A DNA stretch of 64,000 bases from a virus, in the IMG/VR virus record IMGVR_UViG_3300044609_000721. The stretch is one strand, 5' to 3'. A program made the position numbers and the translations under genes. Of the stretch, positions 7,163-28,900 are shown in pieces (the first letter of the stretch is position 1; the number at the start of each line of letters is the position of its first letter). Under the pieces are notes generated by a model. It saw nothing but the letters and a program-made list of their open reading frames with translations. It was not told where the DNA came from and searched no databases.

Positions 7163-7298
7163 TTCTTCACCTCACAAGCAGGAGTCATATCAACTAAGAT
7201 TGCAGCAAGTTTCAATCCACCAAGCACCGCAGTTGGAGCAATAAAAATTAACAACAGAATGCCAAGTGGAATGGCAACATATTCCTCAAAAAAGCTTT

Positions 7299-12752: not shown

Positions 12753-12787
12753 AGTATAGGGTAAAGAAAAGGGGGTGTCAAGCCCCC
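12753..12787 (-). promoter_or_regulatory. sigma70-type promoter overlapping an intrinsic terminator
   Basis: TTGACA(12781-12776)-17-TATACT(12758-12753); GGGGG/CCCCC stem followed by TTTT. Confidence 0.85.
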
Positions 12788-12793
12788 TATTGA

Positions 12794-13018
12794 TCAGTTC
12801 TTCTTATGGTTCCATGGGATCGGGGGAAGTCCTAACTCTTTGTTGAACTTATTTAGATCCCTAAGAAGTTTCCACTTGAAGTATATTCGCATTACTTCTG
12901 TTTGTGCGTGTCTGATCTTAATATTCATAAAAACTAAAATCTGATTCATTCCCTCTGGATATTCCCAGAATAAGTACACAAGTACAAGAAGAAATAGAAT
13001 AAAAAACTGATAATTCAT
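12794..13018 (-). CDS. hypothetical membrane-anchored protein
   Basis: N-terminal transmembrane-like segment. Confidence 0.6.
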   Translation of the reverse strand: MNYQFFILFLLVLVYLFWEYPEGMNQILVFMNIKIRHAQTEVMRIYFKWKLLRDLNKFNKELGLPPIPWNHKKN

Positions 13019-13024
13019 TTAGTT

Positions 13025-13234
13025 TTAGAAAACAAATTTATATTGACTCTCAGATCCATAGGCATACCCTCTAGGAGGAGCAGGAGTAGCAGCAGGGTAT
13101 GGTTGTCCAAAAACAACAGGTGCTGCATATAATTTTCTGATTAAATAACCTTCTGGAGTCTGAAGAGTTTCCCCATATCGTATCTGTGGGGCTACATTTT
13201 GAGGTACCGTAATAATTGTTGGAGCATCAATCAT
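13025..13234 (-). CDS. hypothetical Pro-rich protein
   Basis: 69 aa ORF. Confidence 0.55.
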   Translation of the reverse strand: MIDAPTIITVPQNVAPQIRYGETLQTPEGYLIRKLYAAPVVFGQPYPAATPAPPRGYAYGSESQYKFVF

Positions 13235-13404
13235 TTCTGTAAGTAGGGGTCAAATACTGTAAGCAGATGTTCCCACATCTGTTTCTCTTGCTTAGAAGTC
13301 TGCTTTGTAGTTTGTTCCCAGTCAAGTAGTACATTGACCAAAAATTTACATTCTGAAGTAGACAACTCAATGGTCTTTAGATTGTTCAACATCATGATTA
13401 GTTT

Positions 13405-13518
13405 TTAGAAAGAGTAATCGTAAGAATATTCGATATCCAGTTCTGGATAATCGTCGTATTGGACATCATCTTCTTGAGATGAATTTTCGTAGAATGATAC
13501 TTCTTCAGGAAGATCCAT
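13405..13518 (-). CDS. small acidic protein (37 aa)
   Basis: MDLPEEVSFYENSSQEDDVQYDDYPELDIEYSYDYSF; starts 1 nt after the upstream stop. Confidence 0.5.
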   Translation of the reverse strand: MDLPEEVSFYENSSQEDDVQYDDYPELDIEYSYDYSF

Positions 13519-13519
13519 T

Positions 13520-13702
13520 TCAGCACCAGTCTTCTTCAGTGAATTCATTGTAGTTAGCATTGAATTTTTTATTGCCTTTGTTTTTACGACCTTGCTGATA
13601 ATCATCTTCGGAACGATAACGTTCTGAATTTGCACGATAACGCTTATCCTTGGAAACTTTCCCCCAGGAGTGATAATCATCACGTCGATATGTACGACCC
13701 AT
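13520..13702 (-). CDS. small basic/hydrophilic protein
   Basis: MGRTYRRDDY...; first ORF after the promoter at 13737-13765. Confidence 0.65.
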   Translation of the reverse strand: MGRTYRRDDYHSWGKVSKDKRYRANSERYRSEDDYQQGRKNKGNKKFNANYNEFTEEDWC

Positions 13703-13736
13703 TAGTTTTTGTGTCTTTCGAATGAACTACTTCTAT

Positions 13737-13765
13737 ATAGTACCTCATGAGGCGAGACCTGTCAA
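13737..13765 (-). promoter_or_regulatory. sigma70-type promoter
   Basis: TTGACA(13765-13760)-17-TACTAT(13742-13737); palindrome CCTCATGAGG in the spacer. Confidence 0.75.
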
Positions 13766-14289
13766 GCCCCCTGACCGAGCATTTTTCTTTTATCATATTT
13801 CCACTCAGAATGTGGACCATTTGCATCAACATACTGAAGGAATGCTTGAACATGTCTATTACCTGTGAAAGGTTCTCTCCAATGTGGATATTCAATACCT
13901 TTATAGATGCATACATCACCTACATTTAGTTCATAAGATCTGATTTCACCATCAACTTCAAAAAATATAGGCCAATCAGTTTCCTTTTCGAGGCAACAGG
14001 TAACTCCATACTCAGAACTAGGACGGTCTGTATGACGTTCTAGGACACTTTGGTTTCCATATATCCTTCCATATGAATATGTTGGATACAGAGTCATCTG
14101 GAGTTCTCTCTCCACCTTTGGGTGCATCCACAACAAAAGAGATTCTAGAAATATAGGACTGTAATATCCAAATGCATTTGCAATAGTTGGATCTGGTGGA
14201 TTATTCAATAGTAATCTCAGCATTTCCATGTTGGTAGAAATATACTTGCACATCTCTACTGGAATTGCATTTCTAATAACTTTAATCAT
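13762..14289 (-). CDS. 2OG-Fe(II) oxygenase
   Basis: HTD...H(WR)...R pattern: ERHTDRPSSE, YPHWRE, NRHVQAFL. Confidence 0.85.
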   Translation of the reverse strand: MIKVIRNAIPVEMCKYISTNMEMLRLLLNNPPDPTIANAFGYYSPIFLESLLLWMHPKVERELQMTLYPTYSYGRIYGNQSVLERHTDRPSSEYGVTCCLEKETDWPIFFEVDGEIRSYELNVGDVCIYKGIEYPHWREPFTGNRHVQAFLQYVDANGPHSEWKYDKRKMLGQGA

Positions 14290-14879
14290 AGACTTGATAA
14301 ATTCATGTTAATGACACAGCGATACGGTTGTGTTTTCGTATAAGAACTCGAATGGTAATAATTTCCTGGGAAAAGAAGAAGTCTACCTTTTTTTGGTGCA
14401 ACTCTCTGCTTAATTGTCCACTCATTTCGTTTTAAGTAATATTCATCCCTCTCAATCGTAGGAATATCCAACTTCTGATCGAAAATTACAGTATCACCAT
14501 CACAGTCATTCACATAATATAGTGCAACATAATGTTTACTGTAATTATCAACATGAGGCATATGATAATCCATTGTTGAATCTGGATTGCCAAGTACAAA
14601 ATTGAACCTCATTCTATCCAGGAAGTTGAAAGAAACTCCAGTCTTCTCAGTGATAGACAATACTAGAGGATAGATTGTGTTGAAGAAGTTAGAAATTGGT
14701 TTCTGCTCTTCATACAATTCATGAGTAAATCCATGAATATTCAGAGGTTGTTTCCCATATTCATAAGCAACAATATTTTTCCTAAAGTACCAGGGAAAAG
14801 TAGCACTATTAACAATGCTCAAAATGTGATTCTGATAATCTCTACTGATGAAATCATCTATAACGATAATATCTTTCAT
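14286..14879 (-). CDS. 2OG-Fe(II) oxygenase
   Basis: PHVD, LYYVNDCDGDT, YYHSS, YRCVINMN. Confidence 0.85.
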   Translation of the reverse strand: MKDIIVIDDFISRDYQNHILSIVNSATFPWYFRKNIVAYEYGKQPLNIHGFTHELYEEQKPISNFFNTIYPLVLSITEKTGVSFNFLDRMRFNFVLGNPDSTMDYHMPHVDNYSKHYVALYYVNDCDGDTVIFDQKLDIPTIERDEYYLKRNEWTIKQRVAPKKGRLLLFPGNYYHSSSYTKTQPYRCVINMNLSSL

Positions 14880-15493
14880 ATAGCATGTCCAAAAAACACT
14901 AGGGTTAATCTTGCAGTATCAATATCTTTACCAAAGAAATTATCTGCACTGTGCCAAACTCTAGGATCGAAGATATTGCATCGATTGAATCTATTCTGAA
15001 CTGTAATACTTGGAATCCATTGAGATCTATGATCTTTTCTGTATTGATCATACTTCCTTCGGCCTTCAATGTCATCAGAGTTCACTTCTTCCATGAACAT
15101 CTTAGAGTAATCATCACCATTAACATCCATTCTATCATTATAGAATGTAGTACCAGAATTAATTGGAGTTGGATCTGGATTTAAATAAACCATTCCAGCA
15201 ACATTATACTTATCATCGTCAGTGTGAATCCACCCACTCCCATAAGTGTCATCAATAATTTGAAAAGAAGTCTGAAGAATAGAAAATGAATTCTTATCTG
15301 GGATATGATGAACTAACTTAGATGCAAAAGTATGAAAGAGAGTAATATCTACTTCATCTAGAAAATTACTTCTCAATCCAGGCCAATTTCCACGATCACC
15401 TTTAAAATATTCCTGCTGTAAAGCAAAATTCCTAACAAGAGATGGAGTTTCAAAGAAATTGTCAATTGTAATTAGTGGTAATCTATTTTTCAT
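14876..15493 (-). CDS. 2OG-Fe(II) oxygenase (DUF6445-like)
   Basis: WIHTD, AGMVYLNP...SGTTFY, FNRCNIF...WHSA, ARLTLVFF. Confidence 0.8.
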   Translation of the reverse strand: MKNRLPLITIDNFFETPSLVRNFALQQEYFKGDRGNWPGLRSNFLDEVDITLFHTFASKLVHHIPDKNSFSILQTSFQIIDDTYGSGWIHTDDDKYNVAGMVYLNPDPTPINSGTTFYNDRMDVNGDDYSKMFMEEVNSDDIEGRRKYDQYRKDHRSQWIPSITVQNRFNRCNIFDPRVWHSADNFFGKDIDTARLTLVFFGHAI

Positions 15494-16056
15494 TCTGTTA
15501 CAAAATTAAAAGTAAGTACAAGTCTTCGAGAACACATTTTAGGGCAACCACTTGCATGATAGTGCTTACCATCAAAACAAACAAATTTACCTTGTTCTGG
15601 TTTTATTCTTTGTTTGATAGTATATTTTTCATTTTGTTCAGTCTCATTGAAGATATAGGTATCTCCATCACAGTCATTGAGATAATAGAGTCCAACTTTA
15701 TGCTGATACTGATAATCTACATGTGGATTATTGTAAGAATATGGTAAGTGTGGCATACTGTATACAGTATTCAGAAGAAATCCAAGTCTAACTCTCAGCA
15801 AATCTTTGAGAACCATATTCTCTCTATGTAAGAATTCAAGAAGAATTGGATAATAAGAATTCAAATACTGATTAGATTGTCCTTCATTATACATCAAATT
15901 ACAAAATCCCTGAGTATTCTTCTTACCCTCGGTGGTTCTTTCGTTTGTAACTTCAGGAAGATAATGCCAATCAAATTCTCTAGACGTTGCTAGATCAAGT
16001 AAAAACTTCTGTTGAGATTTGGGAATAATGTCTTGAATTGTAATGATGTCATTCAT
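15490..16056 (-). CDS. 2OG-Fe(II) oxygenase
   Basis: PHVD, LYYLNDCDGDT, HYHAS, RRLVLTFNF; paralog of 14286-14879. Confidence 0.85.
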   Translation of the reverse strand: MNDIITIQDIIPKSQQKFLLDLATSREFDWHYLPEVTNERTTEGKKNTQGFCNLMYNEGQSNQYLNSYYPILLEFLHRENMVLKDLLRVRLGFLLNTVYSMPHLPYSYNNPHVDYQYQHKVGLYYLNDCDGDTYIFNETEQNEKYTIKQRIKPEQGKFVCFDGKHYHASGCPKMCSRRLVLTFNFVTE

Positions 16057-16759
16057 AGTTTATCTTGTAATAATTACGATCTACAGACTGATTTGAAGTC
16101 GGTAACTTTTGCCAACATGGTATACTCATAGACAAACGTTTTCCTAAAGGAACTGCCCAATGATAAGCCCTAGAAGGAATATACAATCCATCCCCAGGTT
16201 TAAGAACAACTTCGGTTTCAACCTGTAGTTGATCTTCACTCAATGTGTGCTGTTGAGTTCCTGTCTTATATAGTGACGATATGCGATTCTTAAAGATCTT
16301 CCAATGAGTTTCACCTTCTACCTGAATTATGAAGTTGGAAGGATAATCATCATGAATTTTAAATGACTTTGAATCCTCCAGACCACAATACACATGAATT
16401 GCAGTATCTATATCAAAGATTCGTTCAAAGACATTCAATAGATCATTCGTCTTCTGACTATAGAATCCATAGTTCATGATGATGAGAGTATTACCTGCAT
16501 TGATTCCATCAGCAAGAAATCTTTTGTCCTGTACAAGTTTGTTACTAATCCAGGCCTTCTGCTGTGCAGGAATATTGATCTTGTTTGAGAACTTATCAAT
16601 CATCTCAAAGTCAAACAGATGAGGATTGTTCACACAGGTCTCAACATCTTGCCAAGAAAGATAGTCTTCTGGATTGTCTAGAAGGTTTTCAAAGTAATGA
16701 GATCTATCATTCACAATCAGATTAGTCTCATTTAAAATTCTTTGTCCGATGTTATACAT
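16049..16759 (-). CDS. JmjC/cupin-4 family oxygenase
   Basis: HVY...SFKIHDD..SNFIIQVEGETHWKIF, LKPGDGLYIPSRAYHWA; probable start MYNIG at 16759. Confidence 0.85.
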   Translation of the reverse strand: MYNIGQRILNETNLIVNDRSHYFENLLDNPEDYLSWQDVETCVNNPHLFDFEMIDKFSNKINIPAQQKAWISNKLVQDKRFLADGINAGNTLIIMNYGFYSQKTNDLLNVFERIFDIDTAIHVYCGLEDSKSFKIHDDYPSNFIIQVEGETHWKIFKNRISSLYKTGTQQHTLSEDQLQVETEVVLKPGDGLYIPSRAYHWAVPLGKRLSMSIPCWQKLPTSNQSVDRNYYKINYE

Positions 16760-17336
16760 TGTACTTGATTGCAATGTTGAATGAAATCGAGATTCTCTCT
16801 TCTTCCGTTTCGTTTTCATCTACGGAGTGTGGAACATAAGATGGAAATAGAATCAATCTACCAACCTTTGGAGGATACTTACATACGCTTCCACTGATAG
16901 GTGTATAGTTAGCAACTCTAGATGCTGAAGTTACAATGAAATCTTCCTGAAAGTTCTTGTAGAACACAATCTGAGGACTATCATCATTGCACTTCACATA
17001 ATAGACACCAGATACAAATGACCCATGGTGAATGTGAGTCTTGTTTGAATTGTTCTTTTGATTGATATTCACCCACATATTACCCATCTCTAGGGTTGTG
17101 CTTGCATCATATCCATAATCATGTAAGCACTGGTTTGCATTTACCATGATGTAGTTATACAGTTCTGGTAGATCTTTAGGATTAATATCGTTAGATTGCC
17201 AACCCCCAAGATTACTAATGCTTCTACCAGCAGGATCTTTCTCTCTAGCAGTATAACAATACTGTAATATGGTTTTGTTATCAATTCCAGTGTCAGTCCA
17301 CCACACTGGAGTAGGGAAGTAGTAATCTAGATTCAT
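16752..17336 (-). CDS. putative 2OG-Fe(II) oxygenase (TIGR02466-like)
   Basis: FPTP, WVNIN, HIHHGSFVSGVYY, LFPSYVPHSV, RISISFNI. Confidence 0.85.
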   Translation of the reverse strand: MNLDYYFPTPVWWTDTGIDNKTILQYCYTAREKDPAGRSISNLGGWQSNDINPKDLPELYNYIMVNANQCLHDYGYDASTTLEMGNMWVNINQKNNSNKTHIHHGSFVSGVYYVKCNDDSPQIVFYKNFQEDFIVTSASRVANYTPISGSVCKYPPKVGRLILFPSYVPHSVDENETEEERISISFNIAIKYNV

Positions 17337-17872
17337 AAGACTATGGGGATAAAACTAAAGTTTTCACTAATCATGTTAGAAGTTTGGAGATCAAATCCTA
17401 GGGTAATTCTTTCGTCATCAAAGTCTTCATCTACTCTAACGTGATGATATCTGAATCCAGGCCCAATATAAATCTGACCTGGTTGATTCTGTATCTCATA
17501 CATTATATTACCATTATGCGAATCTGTAAAGACCGTGGTTGTTTTGTGATCAGTGATACTTATATATCCATGAATTGGAAAGTCATGACTATGTGATTGC
17601 AATACTTGATCCTTAGTGTGTAGGTTAATCCAACTCTGCAACCACAACTGATCATGAGTAGTTGTATAATCTCGAATACATCTCAATAACTCTGTATAAA
17701 GTTTGTACACATGTTGATTACATGATGCAATACTAAAGAAATTGTACATGTAGTAATAATCTGTAGAGTTATTCCTACCAAAGATATGATGAAATTTGTT
17801 GTTGGATAACTTGATGTAGTCTGTGAGTTCTTTTACTTCGATATCAATTTTATACGTTTTGTAGTCATTCAT
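17333..17872 (-). CDS. putative 2OG-Fe(II) oxygenase
   Basis: SWINLH, HSHDF, YHHV, RITLGFDL; probable start MNDYK at 17872. Confidence 0.75.
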   Translation of the reverse strand: MNDYKTYKIDIEVKELTDYIKLSNNKFHHIFGRNNSTDYYYMYNFFSIASCNQHVYKLYTELLRCIRDYTTTHDQLWLQSWINLHTKDQVLQSHSHDFPIHGYISITDHKTTTVFTDSHNGNIMYEIQNQPGQIYIGPGFRYHHVRVDEDFDDERITLGFDLQTSNMISENFSFIPIVL

Positions 17873-18651
17873 ATCATAGGAGTGTAAGAGATAGCATATG
17901 TGTGAGACCACCTGAAGTCCACAGAAGAATCAATGTATGGTGAATGAGGAGTATGAGAATTGTATAGAGTCATCTTAGATTGAATACTAGGTGCAATTCC
18001 AACAGGTTCAAATCCCCAATATTCATACTCATCTTGACTCATATTCTTCCACTCAGAAAGTCTCTTCCTATCAAGAAAAAGTTCCTTACATTCATTGAAT
18101 CTTGGATGAGATTCGTGTACCTGAAAGTCAAAGTACATTTTATTATCATCACCTCTATAAGTTTTGCCCTTATATTCATATAGAGATGTTCCAGAAGTAC
18201 CTTCTTTATGATCAGAAAACCAAAAATTTGCAACTACACCACAAGGAAAATCCATATGAGGTAATCTAAAGTATTCGAGTGGTTTTGATTTCTCCCTAAA
18301 GTATACATTTCCCCACTCACTAAATCTCATATCAAAGTGAGGAGGAAACTGAGGTTTGAAATAGGTTTTGATTAATATTAATATTCCCCTACACATCCAT
18401 TCGGGTAAATGAATAGCCTCAAATGGGTTTGCTTCTTTACACTGTTGGTTGTTGTGCGTTTTGATAATAGGGAAGCAAGATGCCAATTCTTTATACATTT
18501 CAAATCCATTATCCAAGAATGGATTATCTGCTATCCAATATCCTACAGTGTCAGTTAATTTAATGTATTGGATATTCCATTCATCATACTTTTTGACTTT
18601 AATTACGTCGTCAAATTCATTTGCATCTGGATAACAATATCTAAAATTCAT
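17869..18651 (-). CDS. putative 2OG-Fe(II) oxygenase (DUF6445-like)
   Basis: LPHMD, SGTSLY, LYNSHTPHSP, FRWSHTY. Confidence 0.7.
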   Translation of the reverse strand: MNFRYCYPDANEFDDVIKVKKYDEWNIQYIKLTDTVGYWIADNPFLDNGFEMYKELASCFPIIKTHNNQQCKEANPFEAIHLPEWMCRGILILIKTYFKPQFPPHFDMRFSEWGNVYFREKSKPLEYFRLPHMDFPCGVVANFWFSDHKEGTSGTSLYEYKGKTYRGDDNKMYFDFQVHESHPRFNECKELFLDRKRLSEWKNMSQDEYEYWGFEPVGIAPSIQSKMTLYNSHTPHSPYIDSSVDFRWSHTYAISYTPMI

Positions 18652-18652
18652 T

Positions 18653-19252
18653 TCATGTTCCCTTTATGTTATAAGTAAGAACTATTCTTTCTTCATCAGT
18701 AGAATTCTCTTGTGTCCTATGATTAATCCATGGAGGAAAGATAAGAACGTCATTTGTAGTAACTTCCAATTCTCTCCACAATTGCTTCTCTGGATTGAAT
18801 GGTAGTCCAAGTTTATGGTACTCTAAAGGATCTCTAAACTCAATATTACCAGATCCTTCTGGACACTTCAGGTAAGCAGAAACAACCATGTCAGACATAT
18901 TATGAACATGTTCGACGGTTTTTCCTGTTCTTCTGTGAACATTAATCCATGACTTGGTGATGATACTATTGGAAGATAAAAGTTGATTCATCTCCCAAAT
19001 ATATGCAATTCTAGATACCAACCATTTGTGATAATCATTTAAGAGTGGAGAGTTATGAGGTTCTAACTCGTTATCATAAACTCCAACTCTTGCTGTGGAT
19101 ATTGCATCACCAGTTTCTAATAGACTAGACTCTGGTGATACAGACCAATGAGTTCGCAGAGACTCAATCAGAGGATTAAGTTTATCTAAATCAAACTCGT
19201 ATTTAAATTTCCAAATCAAAGGTGGCCATAAATGTATTGGTGTTCCATCCAT
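18653..19252 (-). CDS. putative 2OG-Fe(II) oxygenase (TIGR02466-like)
   Basis: SWINVH, EHVH, SAYLKCPEGSGNIEFRDP, IFPPWINHRT, RIVLTYNI. Confidence 0.85.
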   Translation of the reverse strand: MDGTPIHLWPPLIWKFKYEFDLDKLNPLIESLRTHWSVSPESSLLETGDAISTARVGVYDNELEPHNSPLLNDYHKWLVSRIAYIWEMNQLLSSNSIITKSWINVHRRTGKTVEHVHNMSDMVVSAYLKCPEGSGNIEFRDPLEYHKLGLPFNPEKQLWRELEVTTNDVLIFPPWINHRTQENSTDEERIVLTYNIKGT

Positions 19253-19255
19253 AAA

Positions 19256-19477
19256 TCAAGAAATTCCACACTCCTCTTTTGCTAATTCCAGACCTTCAAT
19301 AGCACCTTGAAGTTTAATGATTAGTTCATACATCTCTTGACGCTTTTGAAAGTCAATTGTAGTAATACCATAAGGATTTAGTTTGGTATCAGCAAATTCT
19401 ACCTCAAGTTTTTCTTTATCTTCAATTGCCATTTGAATTTGACCTTTAAAATTATCAATCAGTTCATCAATAGTCAT
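19256..19477 (-). CDS. small helical hypothetical protein
   Basis: 73 aa, coupled within the operon. Confidence 0.65.
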   Translation of the reverse strand: MTIDELIDNFKGQIQMAIEDKEKLEVEFADTKLNPYGITTIDFQKRQEMYELIIKLQGAIEGLELAKEECGIS

Positions 19478-20247
19478 AATTTCCGATCTCCTGTTCTATA
19501 GCGTTTAAAAATTTCTGTCACTCTATTTATTCTAGATTGAACCGAATCATATCTCATTGTATTGCATCTATTTGCATAGACAAATGATTCCTCCATATCA
19601 TACTCCACTTGTCCAGCACTGTCAATAATGGTCTCAAAGTTATTGAGGTTCAAATACTTCCTATTTACAGGTACGTACTGAACTAAAGGTGTTCCAGCCT
19701 TTACAAATGTTTCACCTTCAAGTACATGCCAAAAAAGTTGAACATTCATAACATGTGCATATCTGGGGTCTAGAATTCCATATGCTGGAGTAAATCTAGA
19801 TTCATTGTTATATGCAACTGGCATTTGTATGAATACAATATCATCAGATGCTTTCACTCTCCATGGAGTCTCAACTTTAACAATTTGCTTAAGAGTATTA
19901 TCTGGATTATCTAATAGTGGTTCAACTTGCTTTTCATCATGCTTATCAATATACCCATACATACCACGTTTGAATAGGTATGGTGTTTCCCAAGTAAAAC
20001 TAGATCCATCACCATTGGTAGTGATAGTAAAGTCTGCAGGAGCAACTAATACGTAACCAGCATGAGCAAGATTAGTGATTCCTGGGCAATTTGAAGATGA
20101 CATGAAACCAGAGAAAGGACATTTCTTTTTCCTTACTTCTGGTTCCATCCATTTCCTTCTAATTGAATGTGATGTAATGATTGGGTATAAGTCAGTCACT
20201 CCAGGTTCTAGTGAATAGAACCTGATCCAACTCTTTTTTCTAAACAT
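19474..20247 (-). CDS. hypothetical protein (possibly DUF6065-like)
   Basis: CPG...AGYVLVAPADF, PWRVK, GILD, KAGTPLVQYVP; family call tentative. Confidence 0.55.
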   Translation of the reverse strand: MFRKKSWIRFYSLEPGVTDLYPIITSHSIRRKWMEPEVRKKKCPFSGFMSSSNCPGITNLAHAGYVLVAPADFTITTNGDGSSFTWETPYLFKRGMYGYIDKHDEKQVEPLLDNPDNTLKQIVKVETPWRVKASDDIVFIQMPVAYNNESRFTPAYGILDPRYAHVMNVQLFWHVLEGETFVKAGTPLVQYVPVNRKYLNLNNFETIIDSAGQVEYDMEESFVYANRCNTMRYDSVQSRINRVTEIFKRYRTGDRKL

Positions 20248-20274
20248 AATTTATCTACCTTTATTCAGATTATA

Positions 20275-21879
20275 TCATGCATCAACGTGTTCGTCAACCC
20301 CATCGTAAATATTATCTCGGAGAAACTCATAGTGAGAAGGTAATGTTTGAACATACTCAACAATATGATCTCTATATTGTTCATATTTTCGCTTGGAGTC
20401 TTCAATCCTATCTAAAGGCCATCCATTACTTTCATAGATTTGCTCAACTTGCCTCTTATACGAAAGTGGTTTCATTCCCATTCCAGCAGCAATATAATTT
20501 GTACCACTGGTTCTAGTCTCCCAGTAATTATTCTGAAGTGATCCTGCAAGGAAACTTTGATATGATGCTTGATGATTCACAAATACGTTCATCATATCTG
20601 GATTGTATTCATTAATGTTTGTTGCCCATCTCCAGTATGGAGTATCATCTCTCATAGAGAACGCATAGTGCATAGAAACAAAATCCACAAATCCAGTCAA
20701 TTCATGATCAACAGCAAAGTTGTATCCATCAATTTCAGATCTGGTTACTCTACCCTCTCTACGATTGATAAGATCTACCAGTTTAATCACATTTTCATGA
20801 GTTGTGAGCAGTCCTGTAGATTCTAAAGGTTCTACGAATCCATAGGACAATCCAATTCCAACAACGTTTCTAACCCATGCACGTTCTCTCTTTCCATGAC
20901 GAATATTAATATGGAACATTTCTGCTTCTTCTGCTCTCTTTGGATCAGTTTTTGCTAAATGCTCTCTGAATTCTTTTTGTGCATCCTCTTTAGATGTAAA
21001 GCGAGATGAGTAAACATATCCCGTTCCAATACGATTCCAGAGAGGAATATTCCAAACCCATCCATTGTCTAGTGCATGACAATCGGTAACATTGTGCATT
21101 TCATTTTCCCTATCAATATAGGGGATTCTGCAAGCCCATGCACTATCGTTTGCAAGTTTCTTACTGAAAGGTCTGAAAATAGAACCCATATACCCCTCAA
21201 GGAGCATGGATTTAAATCCAGTACAATCAATATAAAGATCTGCACAAATTGCAGTCTCTTCATCAAGAACTAGATATTTGATTGATTGATCTTTGTTTGG
21301 TTCATATCCAGTAATGTTACCAACAATATGTTGAACTCCATTAGGAATACAAATATTTTCCTTTAACCACTTACCAAATAGTTCCGCATCCATGTGGTAT
21401 GCAGTATCATATTTAAAACTAAAGTTTCTAATTTTATTGTCTTTATTTCTGGTCTGTTTGTTGTACTTGGCCAAGAAGGTATTGGCATTATAGAACTCAG
21501 CAAAAGTATCTGGAGTATAACTCTCATCAAAGAGAGCAATTTCTGCCCAAGTATTCAGACCATTATGCTTATCGGTGAAATCAAACTCTGCACCAAAAGG
21601 ATATTCAAAATGACTTCCATCATTTTCACGGAAGTTAGTAAATCGAATAGAATTTTTGTAAGTTGCATTACATGCCTTCATCCAATCTTCATCCTTAATA
21701 TCCAAAAGATCTAAGAATCGATTGATATGACCAAGAGTAGATTCTCCCACGCCAACTGTTTTGACATTGGGAGATTCAACTAAAGCAATTTCCAAAAATG
21801 GGCACAGTTTACTAAGTGCTGCAGCAGTCATCCATCCAGAAGAACCACCACCAACAATTACGACGCTTTCAATTTTCAT
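20275..21879 (-). CDS. flavin-dependent halogenase (tryptophan halogenase/PrnA family)
   Basis: GGGSSG FAD motif, VGESTL, catalytic-Lys region ATYKNSIRF, GWVWNIP (WxWxIP), FVEPLESTG (FxxPxxSxG). Confidence 0.9.
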   Translation of the reverse strand: MKIESVVIVGGGSSGWMTAAALSKLCPFLEIALVESPNVKTVGVGESTLGHINRFLDLLDIKDEDWMKACNATYKNSIRFTNFRENDGSHFEYPFGAEFDFTDKHNGLNTWAEIALFDESYTPDTFAEFYNANTFLAKYNKQTRNKDNKIRNFSFKYDTAYHMDAELFGKWLKENICIPNGVQHIVGNITGYEPNKDQSIKYLVLDEETAICADLYIDCTGFKSMLLEGYMGSIFRPFSKKLANDSAWACRIPYIDRENEMHNVTDCHALDNGWVWNIPLWNRIGTGYVYSSRFTSKEDAQKEFREHLAKTDPKRAEEAEMFHINIRHGKRERAWVRNVVGIGLSYGFVEPLESTGLLTTHENVIKLVDLINRREGRVTRSEIDGYNFAVDHELTGFVDFVSMHYAFSMRDDTPYWRWATNINEYNPDMMNVFVNHQASYQSFLAGSLQNNYWETRTSGTNYIAAGMGMKPLSYKRQVEQIYESNGWPLDRIEDSKRKYEQYRDHIVEYVQTLPSHYEFLRDNIYDGVDEHVDA

Positions 21880-21918
21880 AAGTTTTTCAGATAAATGATC
21901 AAGAAATAAATTTAAATA

Positions 21919-22410
21919 TCAATCTTCCTTTTTATAACCTTTCCATCCAGGATATCTTACCCAGGCAGGTTTTTCCATTGTAGAAATACCACATGGTTTA
22001 TCTGCACCTGGTTCTTCGTTCTCTGCAAACTCTAGAAGTTCTTCGAGAACCATTAAATTCTCTTGAGACTGTTGTTTTGGTTTGGGTAAAGTCTCTTTTA
22101 CATTTTTAATATGATCAACCCAAGTATTTGTTCCACTGACCATATCCTTATATAGCATATCAAGTTGCTCTCCAACATCACCATAAGCAACTTTTCTTGC
22201 CATACCTGGATCAGTATATGGTTGATCCCTCTTCACCCAAACCATATGTCCTTTTTTGGGTGAATATTCTAGAGTCCATTCTAGAGCAACTTCATCTGGA
22301 GCATCAACCCAAAGCATTGCTGCTCCAGGTCCTTCATAAATTTCATACTCTTCTCCAGGATCTTTAATTTCGTGAATGTATCCTTGAAATCCTACTAATA
22401 CCTTTTTCAT
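21919..22410 (-). CDS. putative tail-fibre-associated protein or assembly chaperone
   Basis: RKVAYGDVGEQLDMLYKD motif; directly follows the fibre genes. Confidence 0.55.
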   Translation of the reverse strand: MKKVLVGFQGYIHEIKDPGEEYEIYEGPGAAMLWVDAPDEVALEWTLEYSPKKGHMVWVKRDQPYTDPGMARKVAYGDVGEQLDMLYKDMVSGTNTWVDHIKNVKETLPKPKQQSQENLMVLEELLEFAENEEPGADKPCGISTMEKPAWVRYPGWKGYKKED

Positions 22411-22434
22411 GTTTAAATTACTCCTTTCCTATGG

Positions 22435-22442
22435 TATTTATA
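22435..22442 (-). promoter_or_regulatory. T4-type late promoter
   Basis: TATAAATA on the minus strand, 24 nt before the ATG at 22410. Confidence 0.75.
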
Positions 22443-23241
22443 TGTAATGTGTTACAACCACAAGTCCAGGTCTTCCATTAGATCCTCTGTGGCCATGATA
22501 GTGTGCCCCTGATCCACCAGATCCTGGTGCAGAGTGAGACTGGTGGTTATGACTAAAGTTACCACCTTGAGGGTGTCCAGCAGCAACGGCGCCGCCGTGA
22601 TGAGAAGTCCCACCAAGATTAGCACCTCTACCATGATGTGAGTCTCCGCCTCCACCATAAATGTTTAGATCTCCACCAGATCCAACTCCAGCAAGACCAC
22701 CAGAGTGTTGGTTATTACGATTGGCACCGAAACCACCAGAAGCAGAGCAATAAGATCCAAATGATGAAGCACCACCATTATCTCCTGCGTTTGCATAGTA
22801 GGTACCATTCACTTCTCCAGAAACAGTTACTGGAACCGAAGAAATGGATTGCACATTAATAATTCTTTCAGAATATCCTCCAGCACCTCCACATTCACCA
22901 TGGCCAGATCCTCCTCCTCCACCACCTTGAACCTTTACGTGAATAAAACGAATATTTCCAGGTTTTGTCCAAGTACCAGACGAAGTGAATACCTGAGTGC
23001 TTAGAATATTACCAGTAGATCCCAATGGTTGCCAAGATGCTGTAGATCCACTGGTCTCTAACCATTTTCCAGAATTACCAGATTGGGATGGTAATGTAGA
23101 ATTAGTAGTACCGCTAATTGTACCGTTAATAACCAAGTTACTAACTTGAAGTCTTCCTACAACAGACAAAGAACCAGAAACTAGATCAAATCCACTAGTT
23201 CCACTAAAATCTCTAATATTTGTAACTTTAATAGTACTCAT
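22438..23241 (-). CDS. glycine-rich virion/adhesin-like protein (paralog A)
   Basis: FTSSGTWTKP followed by polyglycine motifs, ending GLVVVTHY. Confidence 0.75.
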   Translation of the reverse strand: MSTIKVTNIRDFSGTSGFDLVSGSLSVVGRLQVSNLVINGTISGTTNSTLPSQSGNSGKWLETSGSTASWQPLGSTGNILSTQVFTSSGTWTKPGNIRFIHVKVQGGGGGGSGHGECGGAGGYSERIINVQSISSVPVTVSGEVNGTYYANAGDNGGASSFGSYCSASGGFGANRNNQHSGGLAGVGSGGDLNIYGGGGDSHHGRGANLGGTSHHGGAVAAGHPQGGNFSHNHQSHSAPGSGGSGAHYHGHRGSNGRPGLVVVTHYI

Positions 23242-23521
23242 TTGTTTATCACTTGAAATGTGTTACGACAACTAATCCAGGTCTTCCATTAGATCCTCTA
23301 TGACCAGAGAAATATCCACCAGATCCACCAGATCCTGGTGCAGAGTGAGACTGGTGGTTATGACTAAAGTTACCACCTTGAGGGTGTCCAGCAGCAACAG
23401 CACCACCAAAGTGTGATGCACCACCAACAGAAGAATAGTTGTGGTGTGATTGTCCACCACCACCATAAATGTTTAGATCTCCACCAGATCCAACTCCAGC
23501 AAGACCACCAGAGTGTTGGTT
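22465..23521. repeat. identical blocks shared by the two paralogs
   Basis: 24 bp 22465-22488 = 23276-23299; 77 bp 22511-22587 = 23322-23398; 62 bp 22652-22713 = 23460-23521. Confidence 0.85.
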
Positions 23522-24049
23522 AGTTCTATTAGCACCAAGACCACCAGATGCTGAACAGTAAGCTCCAAACGAGGAAGCGCCACCATTATCACCAGGACCA
23601 GAATAATAAGTACCATTGACTTCTCCAGCAACAGTTACTGCAACTGTGGAAACCGATTGTACGTCAATAACTCTCTCTGAGTAACCACCGGCTCCTCCAC
23701 CTTCACCATGTCCAGATCCACCGCCGCCACCGCCTTGTACTTGAACTTTGATGAATCTTACACCAGTTGGTTTTGTCCAAGTACCAGATGAGGTGAATAC
23801 CTGCATACTGGTAATATTGTCAGATGTTGGTTTTGTGATCCACTGTGGATTTGTGCCATCAGTAGAAAGAATTCTACCAGCATTACCTGACTGTGAAGGG
23901 AGATACTGTTTATTGTTTCCACTAATAGTACCATTAATAACAAGGTTCGAAACTGTCAGAGTTCCGTTAGCAGTAACTGCACCAGAAGATAAACTAAATC
24001 CACCTGTATTACTTAGATCTTTAATTGCTGCAACTTTTAGGGTACTCAT
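23249..24049 (-). CDS. glycine-rich virion/adhesin-like protein (paralog B)
   Basis: Same architecture as 22438-23241. Confidence 0.75.
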   Translation of the reverse strand: MSTLKVAAIKDLSNTGGFSLSSGAVTANGTLTVSNLVINGTISGNNKQYLPSQSGNAGRILSTDGTNPQWITKPTSDNITSMQVFTSSGTWTKPTGVRFIKVQVQGGGGGGSGHGEGGGAGGYSERVIDVQSVSTVAVTVAGEVNGTYYSGPGDNGGASSFGAYCSASGGLGANRTNQHSGGLAGVGSGGDLNIYGGGGQSHHNYSSVGGASHFGGAVAAGHPQGGNFSHNHQSHSAPGSGGSGGYFSGHRGSNGRPGLVVVTHFK

Positions 24050-24071
24050 ACCTTAATCCTCTCTACATGTT

Positions 24072-24079
24072 TATTTATA
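24072..24079 (-). promoter_or_regulatory. T4-type late promoter
   Basis: TATAAATA upstream of the ATG at 24049 (GAGG SD). Confidence 0.8.
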
Positions 24080-24109
24080 AAATTGTTTGATCATAATGAG
24101 TCTGTACGT

Positions 24110-25006
24110 TTATGCTCTAGTGATGTAAATATATCCGCTGCCGTCACCAGAGGTATTGCCGCCAGTAGTATTTTGTGGATTAGATCCAGAATTAAATGAT
24201 CCACCTCCAGCAGCATCATAACTCCAAGGTGAGGCACCGCCTCCAGAATATCCACCGCCAGCGCCAGCACCGTTGGTTCCACCACCACCGCCACCGCCAC
24301 CGAATCCTCCGCGAGCATTAGCACCACCTACAGAACCATTAGTAAAAGATTGACCAAACCACGATCCACTACCATTACCAGTTAATCCACCACCGCCGCC
24401 AGCATTACCATATCCGCTGCCGCCAGATCCTCCTGAACCACCTCCAGCCCAAGAAGTACTAAAACCATTCTGACCAGAGTTTCCTGCAGGACTACCACTT
24501 CCACTAAATCCAGAAGCAGATCCTCCTCCTCCACCACCAGCAATAATTAATGGTGAATTATCAGTATAGCAGACATAAGTGCCTCCTCCACCACCAGCAT
24601 CATAGTAATTATTTTCTCCGTTTTGCCCAACAACCATTTTCAATTGCGTTCCAGAAGATAGTGAAAATGTTCCAACCATCAATGCTCCCCATCCACCCCA
24701 TCTACCCCAACCATTGCTATATCCACCCCTAGCTCCACCTACAGTAATTCTGTAAGATCCACTTGAAGGGACTATCCAATATTGATATCCAGAAATAACG
24801 TTATAGAATGAGATATTATTTTTCCAAGCATCAACACCTATTCCAGTAAGTCCATTTATACCTTGCGATAAACTTGGTCCAGTATTATATGCTTGTCCAC
24901 CTGGAGTAAATCTAGCCTCGGTAAAAGCATAGCGAGATCCACCAGAACCTGATGACGGACCAACTGGAATAAGATTTGATTTAAAACCAGTAATAAATGG
25001 TGCCAT
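24110..25006 (-). CDS. glycine-rich (ALK/LTK-like polyglycine) virion protein
   Basis: WIVPSSGSYRITVGGARGG, LKMVVGQNG, GGGGGTYV, PLIIAGGGGG; probable start MAPF at 25006. Confidence 0.75.
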   Translation of the reverse strand: MAPFITGFKSNLIPVGPSSGSGGSRYAFTEARFTPGGQAYNTGPSLSQGINGLTGIGVDAWKNNISFYNVISGYQYWIVPSSGSYRITVGGARGGYSNGWGRWGGWGALMVGTFSLSSGTQLKMVVGQNGENNYYDAGGGGGTYVCYTDNSPLIIAGGGGGGSASGFSGSGSPAGNSGQNGFSTSWAGGGSGGSGGSGYGNAGGGGGLTGNGSGSWFGQSFTNGSVGGANARGGFGGGGGGGGTNGAGAGGGYSGGGASPWSYDAAGGGSFNSGSNPQNTTGGNTSGDGSGYIYITRA

Positions 25007-25011
25007 AGTAA

Positions 25012-25947
25012 TTACGCAAACTCTGACATCTGTAGTAATGGAATCCAACTGTTAGAAGTTCCACCACTTGAATCTGTATATTGAGTAACTCTCATCATAG
25101 AAACTCCAACCACAACTGTTCTATTTGCAGTTGCAGCAGGTGCTGATCCACCACTCCATCTTGCAGTTCCAATGCTTGTACCATCTAACATAATTGTACC
25201 AGAAGGTCTATATGCAGTTGAACCATTCTGATATATAATCGTGAAACCAAATGCTCTGTTGGAGTCTACTCCACCAGTTCCAATACTTGTTTGAGGGAGA
25301 CCTCTCAGGTTTATCATAAAATTGTTCTGTAGATTAGTGATATAAACGATTCCACCGTCAAGATAGTCAATATTAACAACTGGAGAAGTATCAAAATCAG
25401 GTAATCTGTAAGATACCATCTTTTCTCTAATGGCACCAACATCAAATCGTGCTCCTACAGTATTTAAAATGTCATAAACATCTAAATCTTCGTAAGCAGC
25501 AACGTTCGAATCTTCACCAATAACATAGAAATTTGCACCATTTTCAATTGTTAGGGTATATCCACTAGCAATTTCTACTGGACCTGCACTATAAGCATTA
25601 GTAAACTGAGCACCACCGTTAGCAACTGGACCAATAGTAATGTTTTCATCGATACTATTAGAGTTTGTTCTAATGTAAGAAGTATCTTTATTACCTACGT
25701 GAGGACCACCAGCACCAACAAGAGTCCATCCATCTAGACCCTGGCCGTTTGAGTTGCTGACATAAACCTCTACCTTATCTTCAGTTGTATTGAATCTAAG
25801 TGTACCGTAAGCAACACCAGTAGGACGTTGAGCAGTAGTACCAGTCGGTAACTGCAAAACACTATTAGTGTTTAAGAACTGTAGTGAGGAAATCAGAGCT
25901 TGAGTACTAGTACTAATCTGATTACCATTGATTTGCTGTAATGCCAT
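25012..25947 (-). CDS. tail fibre-type structural protein
   Basis: LQLPTGTTAQRP...GTLRFNTT...EVY fibre motif. Confidence 0.7.
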   Translation of the reverse strand: MALQQINGNQISTSTQALISSLQFLNTNSVLQLPTGTTAQRPTGVAYGTLRFNTTEDKVEVYVSNSNGQGLDGWTLVGAGGPHVGNKDTSYIRTNSNSIDENITIGPVANGGAQFTNAYSAGPVEIASGYTLTIENGANFYVIGEDSNVAAYEDLDVYDILNTVGARFDVGAIREKMVSYRLPDFDTSPVVNIDYLDGGIVYITNLQNNFMINLRGLPQTSIGTGGVDSNRAFGFTIIYQNGSTAYRPSGTIMLDGTSIGTARWSGGSAPAATANRTVVVGVSMMRVTQYTDSSGGTSNSWIPLLQMSEFA

Positions 25948-25978: not shown

Positions 25979-28900
25979 TTAGATTGGGAACTCTCTAATC
26001 TGAATATTGTCTCCATTTCTAGGAGCATCACCAGATCCAAATACAACGTTAGTACCAGAAACTGTATAATTTGTATCAGGTACTTGGCAAACACCATTGA
26101 TGAATACCATTACACTTCTGGAATTATGACCAGAGGTAATAGTATATTGTTGGGTTGTACCATCACCAGTGTACGATCTCAAAATATACTTAGATGGAGA
26201 AACACCTCCCTTACCATCAACAACAAGATCACCACTAATATGCTGACTACCAGTAACATCTAATCTATAGGTGGTGTTTGCAGTACCACCAAGAGCCATA
26301 TTTGTATTGGATCCAAATGTAGCAATATCAATGAATCCTGTGTTTGTAAGTCCAAACTTATACCATGTATTGGAATAATAAATCCAACCTAGGTTCTTTC
26401 CAGGAGTCCATGATGTATTGTATACAATATCACCGTCAATAGGTGTTGTATAATATGTTAGAGCAGATAGATTTGGTTGTCCAGATCCATTGTCTGGTGC
26501 CATTAGTGTGGACTTTAGAATTGTACCATCTGGATTCGCATATGTCAACTTCTTGACTTGAATATTGCTGTCCGAAGTAAGTTTTCCTTGGAATGTTACA
26601 GGACCAGCAAATAGTGATTCTAACTGGTTAGATGCACCACCAAGAACCGTCAACTTATCAGTAAGAACAAGTTCAGAGAATGTCTGAATTGTAGTGTTCT
26701 CTTCACCAACAACATTCAACTGAGCAATATCGTCAGAAGTGATCTGTCCAGTAACAGGGTTGATAACCTGGTTACCGATGAATAGATCACCGTTCGAGTT
26801 TAGACCAGAGTAGAATGAAACACCAGCAGCTTCCTTAAGTGACTGAGATAGTTTTACCTGATCTGCAGTTAGAACTTCAACCTGAGTCTGTGGGAATGCA
26901 GTTGAGTAGTTACCAGGACCGAAACCAGTATATTCAAATGTATGGTTACCAGATCTTTGAATAGAGTGACGACGAAGTTCAATGGGGATGGGTACCAATT
27001 CTCCCTCAGTATCAACCTTGAGTGGAATCATTCTAGTTTCAGCATCACCTAGTCTAGCAGTCAATCCAAATGAACCGATTGTTCCAGCACTAGCATTCCA
27101 TGCAAGGTTATTTTGAGATTCTGCAAGGAAGAATTGTGCTGCTTCCTTTGTGATACTTCTCTTAGTATCCTTATTTGGAGTTGGAGTAGCACCATCGGTT
27201 CCATATACCAGACCAATAGTAATATTATCCGCAACAGAAATAGATGCCAATGGATCAGCATTTGGATTATCTCTGTCAAATGCAGGATATACTTCGTTCA
27301 CATTCTGAGAGAATCTAAAGTCATTAAAGTTTGAAGTGGATGGTGTAATAGATGCACACAATACACTCAAGTAGTAAATACCATCGGCAACACCTCTTTC
27401 AAATTGCTGATGAGTTTCAATCTCATACACATAATAAACTTTATTGTATGATGGAGAACTAGACTCACTGGATCTTGGTTGCAACACATAACCAGTAATA
27501 GGTGCTCTAGGAACAGGGAATGAATCTTTTGGCATTACATAGCGTAATCTATAGATTCTATCTTTCAGAACACGAGCATCAGGTACTCTCTTGATGAATG
27601 TAGTTGGAGTAAATGCTAGAGTATTGTAAATGGCATTGGTAGTTAGAGTAGTAAAGATTTCATTACTTGTAGATGAAACTTGAATATACCAACCACCAAC
27701 AACACTTTGACCACCAACACTGTATGTGTTTGAGTCAAACTTCAATGGGCTATCTGCAGTATTTGCAGTTGCAGTAGTTACAGATGGTCCGTATGGATTA
27801 ATTCTTGCAGATTTAACTGTTGCTGTTGTAGATCCAGAAGAAATTAGCAGACAGTATAACTTATCTGGTACAGCAGATCCACCAGTACCATCTTGTCTAG
27901 CACCAACAGTATAACCTTGAACTTTCTTTGGAGGTGCAGCATCTGGATTAGTGTATCCATATAGATACAATCTCTGTGAATTTGCAACTACTTTGGTTCT
28001 CTGAATATCAACGTTAACCCAGTTTACAGATACTTCAGGAACATCAGAAAGAGACTTAGGTGGAATGATGTGAGTTAGAGTTCCGAACTTATCCTTAGTA
28101 AATGCTGCTGCTTTGAATCCCTTACAGCGGAGAGCAGTGTTACCAAAGTTAGAGTTGGAGTTAGTGATGGACATGTCAGCACCACTATCAGCAAAGAAGT
28201 GATCACCATATCCCACCGCGAACACCGAAACGACCTGAATGAATGCGTCGTTGGATGCCTTAATGTGAACGTGTCTCCATCCCTTCTTATATCTACATGC
28301 ACCATCTAGGTGAGCACCTTGGCCACCCTCATCGTAGGATCCAGTAGAAGTGTTATAGCGTACAAATGCACGATCGTCTTTCTGTAGAGATAGACCAGTG
28401 AACTGTGCAACAACCATGGATTTGAAACCAGTGGTTTTTCCACCATCAGCGTGCATACCATTCATACCCCACACAGAACGTAGGGATAGGTTGAACACAT
28501 ATGGAGATGATGAGTCAACAGTATCAATCTCAACCTTAACTAGAATGTTAGATCCAACAGCATTACCAGTTGGTTCATCAGACATCTGATAGGTAAATAC
28601 GTTTCCTTGTGCAGATGTTACTTGGAAGGATCCATTGTAGAGAGAGGCATCCAGTTCAGACTGAGTACCAGTCGATCCAGTAACACCTGAAATATTAACA
28701 GAAACCCCAACGGAGAATCCGTGATTCTTAGGATTACCTAGTTCATCAACAGTGATTGCAGTAGCAGTCTGACCGTTTCTAGTAATCTGAAGAACCTGGA
28801 ATTCGTCAGAGATAGGTCCAACGATTCTATTTTCTTCGATTCTTGGTTGTAGTTGGTCTTGTGATGGAGTACCAGAGGTATCAGGAATAGAAGTGAATGC

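Follow-up and report, generated by a model that had tools for sequence, protein, structure and literature searches.

The window studied here is the whole of a 64,000-nucleotide (nt) stretch from the IMG/VR virus record IMGVR_UViG_3300044609_000721, which derives from a T4-like cyanomyovirus of the Kyanoviridae, an assignment that the neighbouring genes fit. On its minus strand, a run of 13 genes (positions 22410–13762) encodes the chaperone-like p163, a flavin-dependent halogenase, p257, p73, and nine oxygenases, and follows the genes of a distal tail-fibre module with putative adhesins (Table 1). A preliminary description of this DNA had proposed that the enzymes form an assembly line modifying the adhesins, with a small-molecule product as the alternative. 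The nine consecutive oxygenase genes that it listed all lie on one strand where it placed them; its account of the run included the halogenase, but omitted the dUTPase-fold gene for p257 and the 73-amino-acid (aa) gene for p73. Below position 13700, the window consists of a long series of small genes.

The region 13000–25500 matched Synechococcus phage S-CREM1 over its full length with 82% nt identity, and no other phage record matched more than 9%. Its gene set and order are shared with S-CREM1 ORF63–ORF80 (OP535465; Zhang et al. 2023, PMC9964418), where eight 2-oxoglutarate (2OG)-Fe(II) oxygenases, a JmjC protein, a tryptophan halogenase, and a “triphosphate nucleotidohydrolase” are annotated; the virus of the window differs from S-CREM1 and is a separate relative. 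The S-CREM1 authors, who identified 14 proteins in the virion proteome, regarded PrnA and each of the ten divergent oxygenases as auxiliary metabolic genes in their own right, and read PrnA as antibiotic protection (PMC9964418). An array of this kind had been described in detail in Syn9 by Iyer, Abhiman, de Souza, and Aravind (2010, PMC2938197), who classed Syn9 gp45–gp54 as dioxygenases and proposed halogenated, hydroxylated secondary metabolites as the product; their account reads the array as metabolite biosynthesis and leaves a link to gp38-like adhesins unmentioned. The Syn9/Syn10 neighbourhood (Syn9 gp40–gp54) shares with the window, in the same order, a gp40-like protein, the halogenase, a dUTPase-fold protein with a conserved Cys, a gp44-like protein, and tandem dioxygenases including one of the MINA/NO66-type JmjC clade, and the window proteins are 40–72% identical to those of Syn9 at the amino acid level. 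The window has one halogenase and nine dioxygenases, whereas Syn9 has two and ten, and no gp50 orthologue is present in the window. With tandem, distantly related dioxygenases of at least four families, one MINA/NO66 JmjC protein, a Trp-halogenase, and a dUTPase-fold protein with an invariant Cys54 within one run, the array is a further member of the described Syn9-type kind, known since 2010. Multiple 2OG oxygenases and prnA were also tabulated across cyanomyoviruses by Sullivan et al. (2010), and our literature search found no paper linking the halogenases to tail fibres.

The halogenase aligned over residues 1–527 with VirX1 of cyanophage Syn10, a flavin-dependent iodinase (PDB 6qgm; E 1.6e-225), far ahead of the next structures, the bacterial tryptophan halogenases (E 6e-74). 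It shares 61.5% identity with the Syn9/Syn10 gene (tblastn) and 44% with its best cellular homologue. All catalytic motifs are kept, and the following residues were invariant among 22 relatives: G10, G11, G12, and G15 of the FAD-binding GxGxxG motif (GGGSSG, residues 10–15), the catalytic Lys75 (ATYK, equivalent to K79 of VirX1), W274, W276, and P279 of the WxWxIP motif (GWVWNIP), and E350 and E353 of the EPLES motif. Judged from these motifs, the protein is a VirX1-clade flavin halogenase, and the PrnA-family assignment of the preliminary description was borne out both by Pfam Trp_halogenase and by the end-to-end VirX1 alignment. VirX1 itself is a trimer with a large open active site that accepts bulky substrates, and no biosynthetic cluster or natural substrate has been identified for it (PMC8407142).

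The nine oxygenases (ox1–ox9) span at least four families, namely Oxy_5, Oxy_3, DUF6445/gp46-type, and JmjC. Pfam cut-offs were passed by ox1, ox4, ox5 (JmjC_2 at 60 bits against a cut-off of 22), and ox7, while ox3, ox6, and ox8 fell just below. Neither ox2 nor ox9 had a Pfam match, and PDB profile searches with these two gave nothing meaningful; they are supported indirectly, ox2 by sharing phrog_1644 with the DUF6445 gene ox7 and by a local hhalign match to the DUF6445 family at the HxD strand, and ox9 by its nearest ESM-Atlas clusters, which carry PF13640 (score 0.92), although hhalign gave no match between ox9 and the Oxy_3 family. Each family was aligned with its relatives from metagenomic loci, and metal motifs were judged from these alignments. 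Six of the nine have HxD...H with a basic residue about 11 positions on, and the three Oxy_5-type proteins (ox1, ox3, and ox4) have HxH...H...R, in both cases conserved in at least 90% of relatives. The “intact metal triads” of the preliminary description thus apply as such to six genes, whereas in the Oxy_5-type genes the triad takes a variant form. By these conserved metal motifs, the run contains nine oxygenase-type genes, eight predicted to be classical 2OG/Fe enzymes and one JmjC; the ox5 orthologue in Syn9, gp49, was placed in the MINA clade by Iyer et al. (PMC2938197). The open reading frames (ORFs) of ox3 (17333–17911) and ox5 (16049–16819) extend beyond conserved ATG codons at 17872 and 16759, respectively, which are the likely starts and, in ox3, give an ATGA overlap. 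Database names for these families can mislead: proteins of the 2OG-oxygenase type (phrog_2954, phrog_274, and phrog_1644) go under “ferrochelatase” (used for the ox9 family in both PHROGs and RefSeq), “DNA endonuclease V”, and “minor coat protein”.

Table 1. Genes and putative transcription signals of the array and its surroundings, in the direction of the minus strand
Feature	Coordinates	Strand	Supporting observations
gp5-like baseplate hub (context gene)	35920–38406		
Second tail-fibre gene (context gene)	29694–31709		
Tail fibre protein, 1229 aa, heads distal fibre module	25979–29668	-	phrog_529 “tail fiber protein”, E 0; 97% identical to S-CREM1 ORF63
Fibre-associated protein, 311 aa	25012–25947	-	phrog_7459, phrog_745; AATAAATA upstream
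Glycine-rich protein, 29.5% Gly, no His	24110–25006	-	phrog_22713; family distinct from the two adhesins
Gly/His-rich gp38-like adhesin, paralogue A	23249–24049	-	Pfam Gly_rich_2, E 4.7e-8; phrog_863
Gly/His-rich gp38-like adhesin, paralogue B	22438–23241	-	Pfam Gly_rich_2, E 5.4e-8
T4-type late-promoter motif TATAAATA	22442–22435	-	24 nt upstream of p163 ATG 22410; overlaps adhesin stop codon
p163, Syn9 gp40 family	21919–22410	-	phrog_1787; phyletic set is that of the adhesin
Flavin-dependent halogenase, VirX1 orthologue, 534 aa	20275–21879	-	Pfam Trp_halogenase, E 1.8e-106
Sigma-70-type promoter candidate, GGGG-TTGACG-17-TATAAT, extended TG	20269–20297	-	11/12 consensus matches; between halogenase and p257
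p257, Syn9 gp43 family, dUTPase fold plus C-terminal helical hairpin	19474–20247	-	AlphaFold2 (AF2) model, pLDDT 85
p73, Syn9 gp44 family, small, probably helical, 73 aa	19256–19477	-	
ox1, 2OG-FeII_Oxy_5/TIGR02466-type	18653–19252	-	Pfam E 4.8e-14; H115-x-H117...H178...R189 conserved
ox2, gp46-type dioxygenase	17869–18651	-	phrog_1644; H132-x-D134...H236...R247 conserved
ox3, divergent Oxy_5-type	17333–17872	-	Pfam Oxy_5 E 0.0022, sub-threshold; phrog_2696; H107-x-H109...H156...R168
ox4, Oxy_5/TIGR02466	16752–17336	-	Pfam E 6e-26; TIGR02466 E 8.9e-34
ox5, JmjC, MINA/NO66/YcfD type	16049–16759	-	Pfam JmjC_2 E 2.2e-16; H156, D158, H220 conserved
ox6, P4H-like 2OG-FeII_Oxy_3	15490–16056	-	Pfam E 3.3e-5; H112-x-D114...H167...R178
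ox7, DUF6445 (Syn9 gp52-type) dioxygenase	14876–15493	-	Pfam DUF6445 E 7.4e-14; H90-x-D92...H181...R195
ox8, P4H-like 2OG-FeII_Oxy_3	14286–14879	-	Pfam E 6.3e-5; H109-x-D111...H176...R187
ox9, gp54-type oxygenase	13762–14289	-	phrog_2954; H86-x-D88...H136 conserved
Sigma-70-type promoter candidate, TTGACA-17-TACTAT	13737–13765	-	overlaps ox9 stop codon

Upstream of the run, the two adhesins A and B (266 and 267 aa) matched PF21722 with 33.6 and 33.8 bits (cut-off 24.3), both matched phrog_863, and they consist of 23% Gly and 4–6% His. Where the preliminary description counted three glycine/His-rich adhesin-like genes, two are of this kind, but the third is Gly-rich without His; its homologue in S-SZBM1 is 64% identical. 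The pair resembles the gp38-type adhesins of T-even phages (Gly_rich_2, PF21722) in its Pfam match, its position in the distal fibre module, and its arrangement as tandem paralogues, and in all relatives gp38-type adhesin genes sit downstream of fibre genes. The putative adhesins of the window differ from T-even gp38 in being His-rich and in what comes after them, namely a small protein of their own and enzymes of the tailoring type, both missing from T-even phages. The 311-aa family keeps its place between fibre gene and adhesins, preceding the latter in most IMG/VR loci. A collagen-like substrate for prolyl or lysyl hydroxylation was dropped, as no run of more than four GXY triplets occurs in the fibre and adhesin proteins near the array. 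The public gene models of two adhesins appear doubtful. At positions 18223–19020 (minus strand) of S-CREM1, tblastn revealed an apparently full-length second adhesin, 86% identical to adhesin A, where the record has just a 369-nt ORF (SCREM1_66), reflecting a mis-annotation or a frameshift; and the second half of Syn9 gp39 (6672–7850, annotated as 1179 nt) repeats adhesin-like segments out of register, so that this model may be frameshifted or duplicated.

When the adhesin family was searched against 50,697 phage records, it matched 20, corresponding to about ten phages of at least five genera (S-CREM1, Syn9/Syn10, S-RIM44, P-RSM6, P-TIM40, S-SZBM1, S-WAM1, Sf-FP1/CH3, and Sf-FR1). Each of these isolates carries, 1–4 kb downstream of the adhesin, a halogenase at least 41% identical to that of the window, and p163 matched the adhesin-bearing phages and, over a short part, one unrelated Methylophilales phage. 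The order fibre, adhesins, small protein, halogenase(s), and oxygenases is kept in S-CREM1, Syn9, S-RIM44, P-RSM6, and S-SZBM1 (at least five genera), with a p257 homologue after the halogenases in Syn9 and S-RIM44. In S-RIM44, the block, with its order kept, sits directly before gp13–gp16, not before small early genes. In P-RSM6, an oxygenase is placed between a structural gene and the adhesins, and in Sf-CH11 a halogenase and four oxygenases lie between structural proteins on both sides.

The same arrangement was seen in metagenomic sequences, for which the loci of the best 80 of 366 IMG/VR adhesin relatives were laid out by tblastn. The gene for p163 came next after the last adhesin in 75 of the 76 loci with room for it, and a halogenase lay downstream of the adhesin in every locus with enough downstream DNA (65/65). 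In the 41 loci with at least 9 kb downstream, oxygenases of the Oxy_5 type were always present (41/41), followed in frequency by the Oxy_3 type (39/41), JmjC (34/41), p257 (34/41), and p73 (19/41). In the reverse direction, we examined the 80 IMG/VR loci closest to the window halogenase (44–64% identity), 65 of which had room upstream; adhesin and p163 preceded the halogenase in 53 of these, two more had diverged adhesins (55/65), and two further halogenases directly adjoined other tail-fibre-like genes. The dependency is thus one-sided: the adhesin is never found without the halogenase, whereas the halogenase is sometimes found without the adhesin. The two appear to have been gained or lost together as a unit, given that the more distant Syn9 has both and S-H38, which the S-CREM1 authors found closest to their phage in core genes (PMC9964418), has no adhesin, p163, or VirX1-type halogenase; the matching site of S-H38 is occupied by different small fibre-distal genes, a distantly related halogenase, and a smaller number of oxygenases. 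Linkage to fibre genes in relatives, on which the preliminary description made its proposal depend, therefore held in both the isolates and the IMG/VR loci.

Gene junctions and late-promoter motifs fit late expression of the run. When conserved ATG codons are taken as starts, neighbouring genes either overlap by 4 nt (ATGA type) or 8 nt or stand 1–3 nt apart, much as first described, but with larger gaps before (39 nt) and after (27 nt) the halogenase; across the IMG/VR loci, the median overlap of the oxygenase genes is 8 nt. The late-promoter motif TATAAATA that had been reported to head the run was found again 24 nt before its first gene, and, as also reported, no strong terminator was detected inside the run. 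Upstream of p163, TATAAATA is also present in S-CREM1, with GATAAATA in Syn9 and CTAAATA in S-RIM44. Six copies of TATAAATA in the window are no excess over chance (4.5 expected); their placement is non-random, the copy at 22442 and a second at 24079–24072, upstream of adhesin A, lying 23–24 nt before gene starts. When the late motif NATAAATA was counted within 60 nt upstream of genes in the 80 IMG/VR loci, it was frequent before the fibre gene (30/48 loci), the first adhesin (42/79), the third adhesin (33/45), and p163 (39/77), less so before the first halogenase (10/71), and absent before p257 (0/52) and the second halogenase (0/34); it preceded one of 345 oxygenase genes. This distribution, together with the overlapping genes, fits late read-through from the fibre module. 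A sigma-70-type promoter candidate between the halogenase and p257 genes, partly conserved in S-CREM1 (-10 box TAGGAT), could give the oxygenase run a non-late start of its own. Hence, of the proposed late co-expression with fibres, the late motifs in the fibre part and their absence from the enzyme run speak for it, but the sigma-70-like promoters inside the run do not, and late timing of the array is inferred from these signals. The oxygenases are not mentioned in the P-HM2 transcriptome paper and its supplements or in PMC7238727.

Among the explanations that we considered, the single most likely one, which we favour tentatively, is that the enzymes tailor proteins of the virion or of late infection, the foremost candidate substrate being the fibre-tip adhesin. 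This explanation is ranked first because no other would account for the dependency being one-sided, for the block moving as a unit, and for the halogenase recurring next to fibre genes that are not homologous; the adhesins lead the candidate substrates because they are never found without the halogenase. On this reading, a Syn9-type enzyme array has been joined to the distal tail-fibre module at its 3' end, and the enzymes of the array would be made mainly late, by read-through from the late promoters of that module, possibly with an additional sigma-70-type start before p257, and would act on proteins made late in infection. The oxygenases would hydroxylate side chains, as JmjC/MINA-type and P4H-like families act as protein hydroxylases elsewhere, and the halogenase, supplied with O2, halide, and FADH2 reduced by the host, would place a halogen on an aromatic side chain. 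Instead of a fixed line of nine steps, the oxygenases probably form a looser set whose members can be exchanged. The narrower proposal, that the VirX1-type halogenase and some of the oxygenases post-translationally halogenate and hydroxylate the phage's own Gly/His-rich fibre-tip adhesin, is rather doubtful. Related cases exist: the co-encoded 2OG oxygenase L230 of Mimivirus reportedly hydroxylates surface-fibre or collagen-like proteins. The window differs from such collagen-like hydroxylation systems in having a halogenase, no GXY repeats, and no glycosyl- or sulfotransferase partner. Similarly to the window, 2OG oxygenases stand beside glycine-rich surface-fibre proteins in predicted bacterial tail-collar/collagen-like operons, for which the substrate was likewise inferred from linkage (Iyer et al. 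2010, PMC2938197).

A considerable body of observations weighs against protein tailoring. The remaining halogenase loci of the reverse search (about 12%) adjoin gp15, UvsX/gp41, oxygenases, or unknown genes, and in S-B64 and one metagenomic locus (L237) the halogenase stands among replication genes. Because the loci share descent, fewer independent events underlie them than their counts suggest. About 150 phage records contain oxygenases of these families, many of them lacking the window's adhesin, and the gp54-type oxygenase alone occurs in 154, mostly without it. At the matching junction, the oxygenases of S-MbCM6 come after serine-rich fibre-tip genes of an unrelated kind, and those of S-T4 after a helicase gene that lies downstream of the tail genes; halogenase–oxygenase pairs or single genes occur in other late or replication contexts in HTVC008M, P-SSM2, and S-B64. 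No joint pattern was found among the copy numbers of adhesins (1–3), halogenases (1–2), and oxygenases (4–9). The sigma-70-like motif TTGAC-17-TAnnnT directly precedes the halogenase gene in 18 of 100 relatives (background, 0.013 per 100 nt), and such promoters, before the halogenase in relatives or before p257 in the window, would argue against strictly late, fibre-coupled expression. The dUTPase-fold protein p257 appears to have no obvious role in protein tailoring. Flavin halogenases that act on large folded proteins are, to our knowledge, without precedent. Adhesin His content averaged 3.6% in loci with JmjC and 4.6% in those without; a role of JmjC as an adhesin histidine hydroxylase was accordingly unsupported, since adhesin His content is no higher where JmjC is present. 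The co-variation of oxygenase repertoire with adhesin type that the preliminary description had suggested looking for did not appear: across loci, neither the number nor the kind of oxygenases followed adhesin copy number or histidine content. Its fibre-tailoring idea is thus backed by the adhesin–halogenase linkage and the late-motif pattern, but not by the oxygenases, which are far more widespread than the adhesin and do not co-vary with it.

Several of these observations would be expected if the array simply occupied a hot spot for insertions where late and early genes meet, as may be the case. Unlinked auxiliary enzymes, each directed at a separate target in host or phage (for example, ribosomal proteins, translation factors, metabolites, or 2OG levels), would then gather behind the fibre genes at a site that tolerates insertions and supplies transcription. 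The oxygenase set is indeed highly variable, with 4–9 copies in differing orders and families, and these families occur in many cyanophages that lack the adhesin or halogenase, and also at other sites (next to gp3, uvsY, gp13, and gp16 in S-B64 and HTVC008M), in addition to the S-MbCM6 and S-T4 oxygenases noted above. Sullivan et al. (2010) counted the region among the variable hot spots and tied the 2OG enzymes to nitrogen status, and the ten S-CREM1 paralogues split over nine separate clades (PMC9964418). A hot spot would, however, leave unexplained that the adhesin is never without the halogenase (65/65 loci and 10/10 isolates), that the block moves as a unit in S-RIM44, and that halogenases without the adhesin often adjoin other fibre genes, and the tight translational coupling and absence of internal late promoters point instead to one co-regulated unit. 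We rank this explanation second and regard it as somewhat unlikely.

The two proteins that accompany the halogenase bear differently on these readings. p163 had no significant fold match (best Z 4.3; AF2 model, pLDDT 78) and no PDB sequence match; its N-domain weakly resembled a fibre chain of cyanophage Pam3 (Z 4.1, 24% identity), and its low-scoring Atlas leads were the tail-assembly families Caudo_TAP_N and XkdW. These weak similarities suggest that p163 is probably a fibre-assembly helper or a fibre component. In contrast, the top ten structural matches of the p257 model were all dUTPases (VIA Z 9.9–8.0; Foldseek best E 1.1e-3), in agreement with the dUTPase-fold assignment of Iyer et al. 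(PMC2938197), and the protein has an invariant Cys54 and a GILDPRY motif resembling dUTPase motif III. Where present, p257 always immediately follows the halogenase. It was the sole member of the dUTPase fold detected in S-CREM1, Syn9, and S-RIM44, from which the canonical dUTPase (PF00692) is absent. These features raise a different possibility, namely that a (deoxy)nucleotide is held by p257, with its motif III-like GxxDxxY and dUTPase/dCTP-deaminase fold (Z up to 9.9), and is modified by the translationally coupled halogenase and/or the oxygenases, for example to a halogenated or hydroxylated base of the phage DNA or to a nucleoside metabolite; both the missing canonical dUTPase and the best reported VirX1 substrate, an azaindole heterocycle (PMC8407142), agree with it. 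On the other hand, no oxygenase matched TET/JBP or AlkB in Pfam, p257 is missing from 7 of the 41 long loci, in which halogenase and oxygenases are nevertheless retained, and the dUTPase HMM misses p257, whose model shows no C-terminal arm motif and ends in a helical hairpin. QueC, of the 7-deazapurine pathway, is absent from S-CREM1, Syn9, and S-RIM44, and 7-deazapurine halogenation was dropped for this reason. Nucleotide or nucleobase chemistry ranks fourth and is, on balance, highly improbable.

For the Syn9 array, Iyer et al. (PMC2938197) proposed a small-molecule pathway, in which a host amino acid, small peptide, or aromatic compound would be converted to a halogenated, hydroxylated metabolite during infection. 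They noted that an operon of distantly related dioxygenases is typical of biosynthetic pathways and that in proteobacteria, apart from any phage fibre, genes for Trp-halogenases, JmjC proteins, and gp52-like dioxygenases are found together with those for TonB receptors and SapC; moreover, VirX1 halogenates small heteroaromatic compounds in vitro (PMC8407142). However, none of the 13 genes encodes a scaffold enzyme or a recognisable precursor peptide, and none of the genes between 25947 and 13405 matched a nonribosomal peptide synthetase, polyketide synthase, ATP-grasp enzyme, cyclodipeptide synthase, or precursor in Pfam and PHROGs (ten also in NCBIfam). p73 is conserved, probably helical, and not precursor-like; a cryptic precursor may remain. 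A set of 4–9 oxygenases of changing families is hard to fit with a fixed pathway, and the fibre linkage would go unexplained. Among the 80 closest cellular halogenase loci (30–44% identity), homologues of the window oxygenases were found near one, in a search (tblastn, 1e-4) too insensitive to test the bacterial neighbourhoods of Iyer et al. As no scaffold enzyme or precursor was found and the oxygenase set is too variable, we rank the small-molecule pathway third and consider it quite unlikely.

Cyanomyoviruses are among the most abundant viruses of the sea, and VirX1 is a biocatalyst in use. Since their first listings (Syn9 2007; Sullivan 2010; Iyer 2010), the 2OG oxygenases and PrnA-like halogenases of these phages have remained without an assigned substrate. 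The gene linkage names concrete candidates, the gp38-like adhesin and its putative helper p163, and thereby offers a hypothesis for the natural substrate of VirX1; as Syn9 and S-CREM1 are cultured, the substrate question is directly testable. A halogenated adhesin would be the first virion protein known to be halogenated by an enzyme and the long-sought natural substrate of the viral halogenases; host range would then depend on chemistry as well as sequence, adding a chemical layer to host recognition by abundant marine phages. If the enzymes leave the adhesin undecorated, the array would be an example of co-regulated auxiliary enzymes.

Further transcription signals were seen around the run. 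Most of the sigma-70-like sites preceding the halogenase in relatives lie within the end of the p163 gene. In 11 IMG/VR loci (L023, L027, L037, L039–L042, L045, L051, L054, and L081), a TTGACA-17-TAAGAT-type promoter is written into the last p163 codons (W-V-D-N-W plus stop), approximately 30–70 nt before the first halogenase, and in four (L040, L042, L051, and L081) a GC hairpin and a T run lie directly before the halogenase ATG, resembling a terminator-like leader behind the promoter, possibly an attenuator or a small RNA. At the other end of the run, the promoter candidate overlapping the ox9 stop codon has its GGGGCTTGAC context in common with a terminator–promoter cassette at 12788–12753 (minus strand), in which a GC hairpin carries the -35 box in its loop and precedes TTTTCTTT; both sites have -17-TAnnnT spacing. 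The GGGGCTTGAC sites at 13737–13770 and 12753–12788 mark the switch from the late block to the early-type region of small genes.

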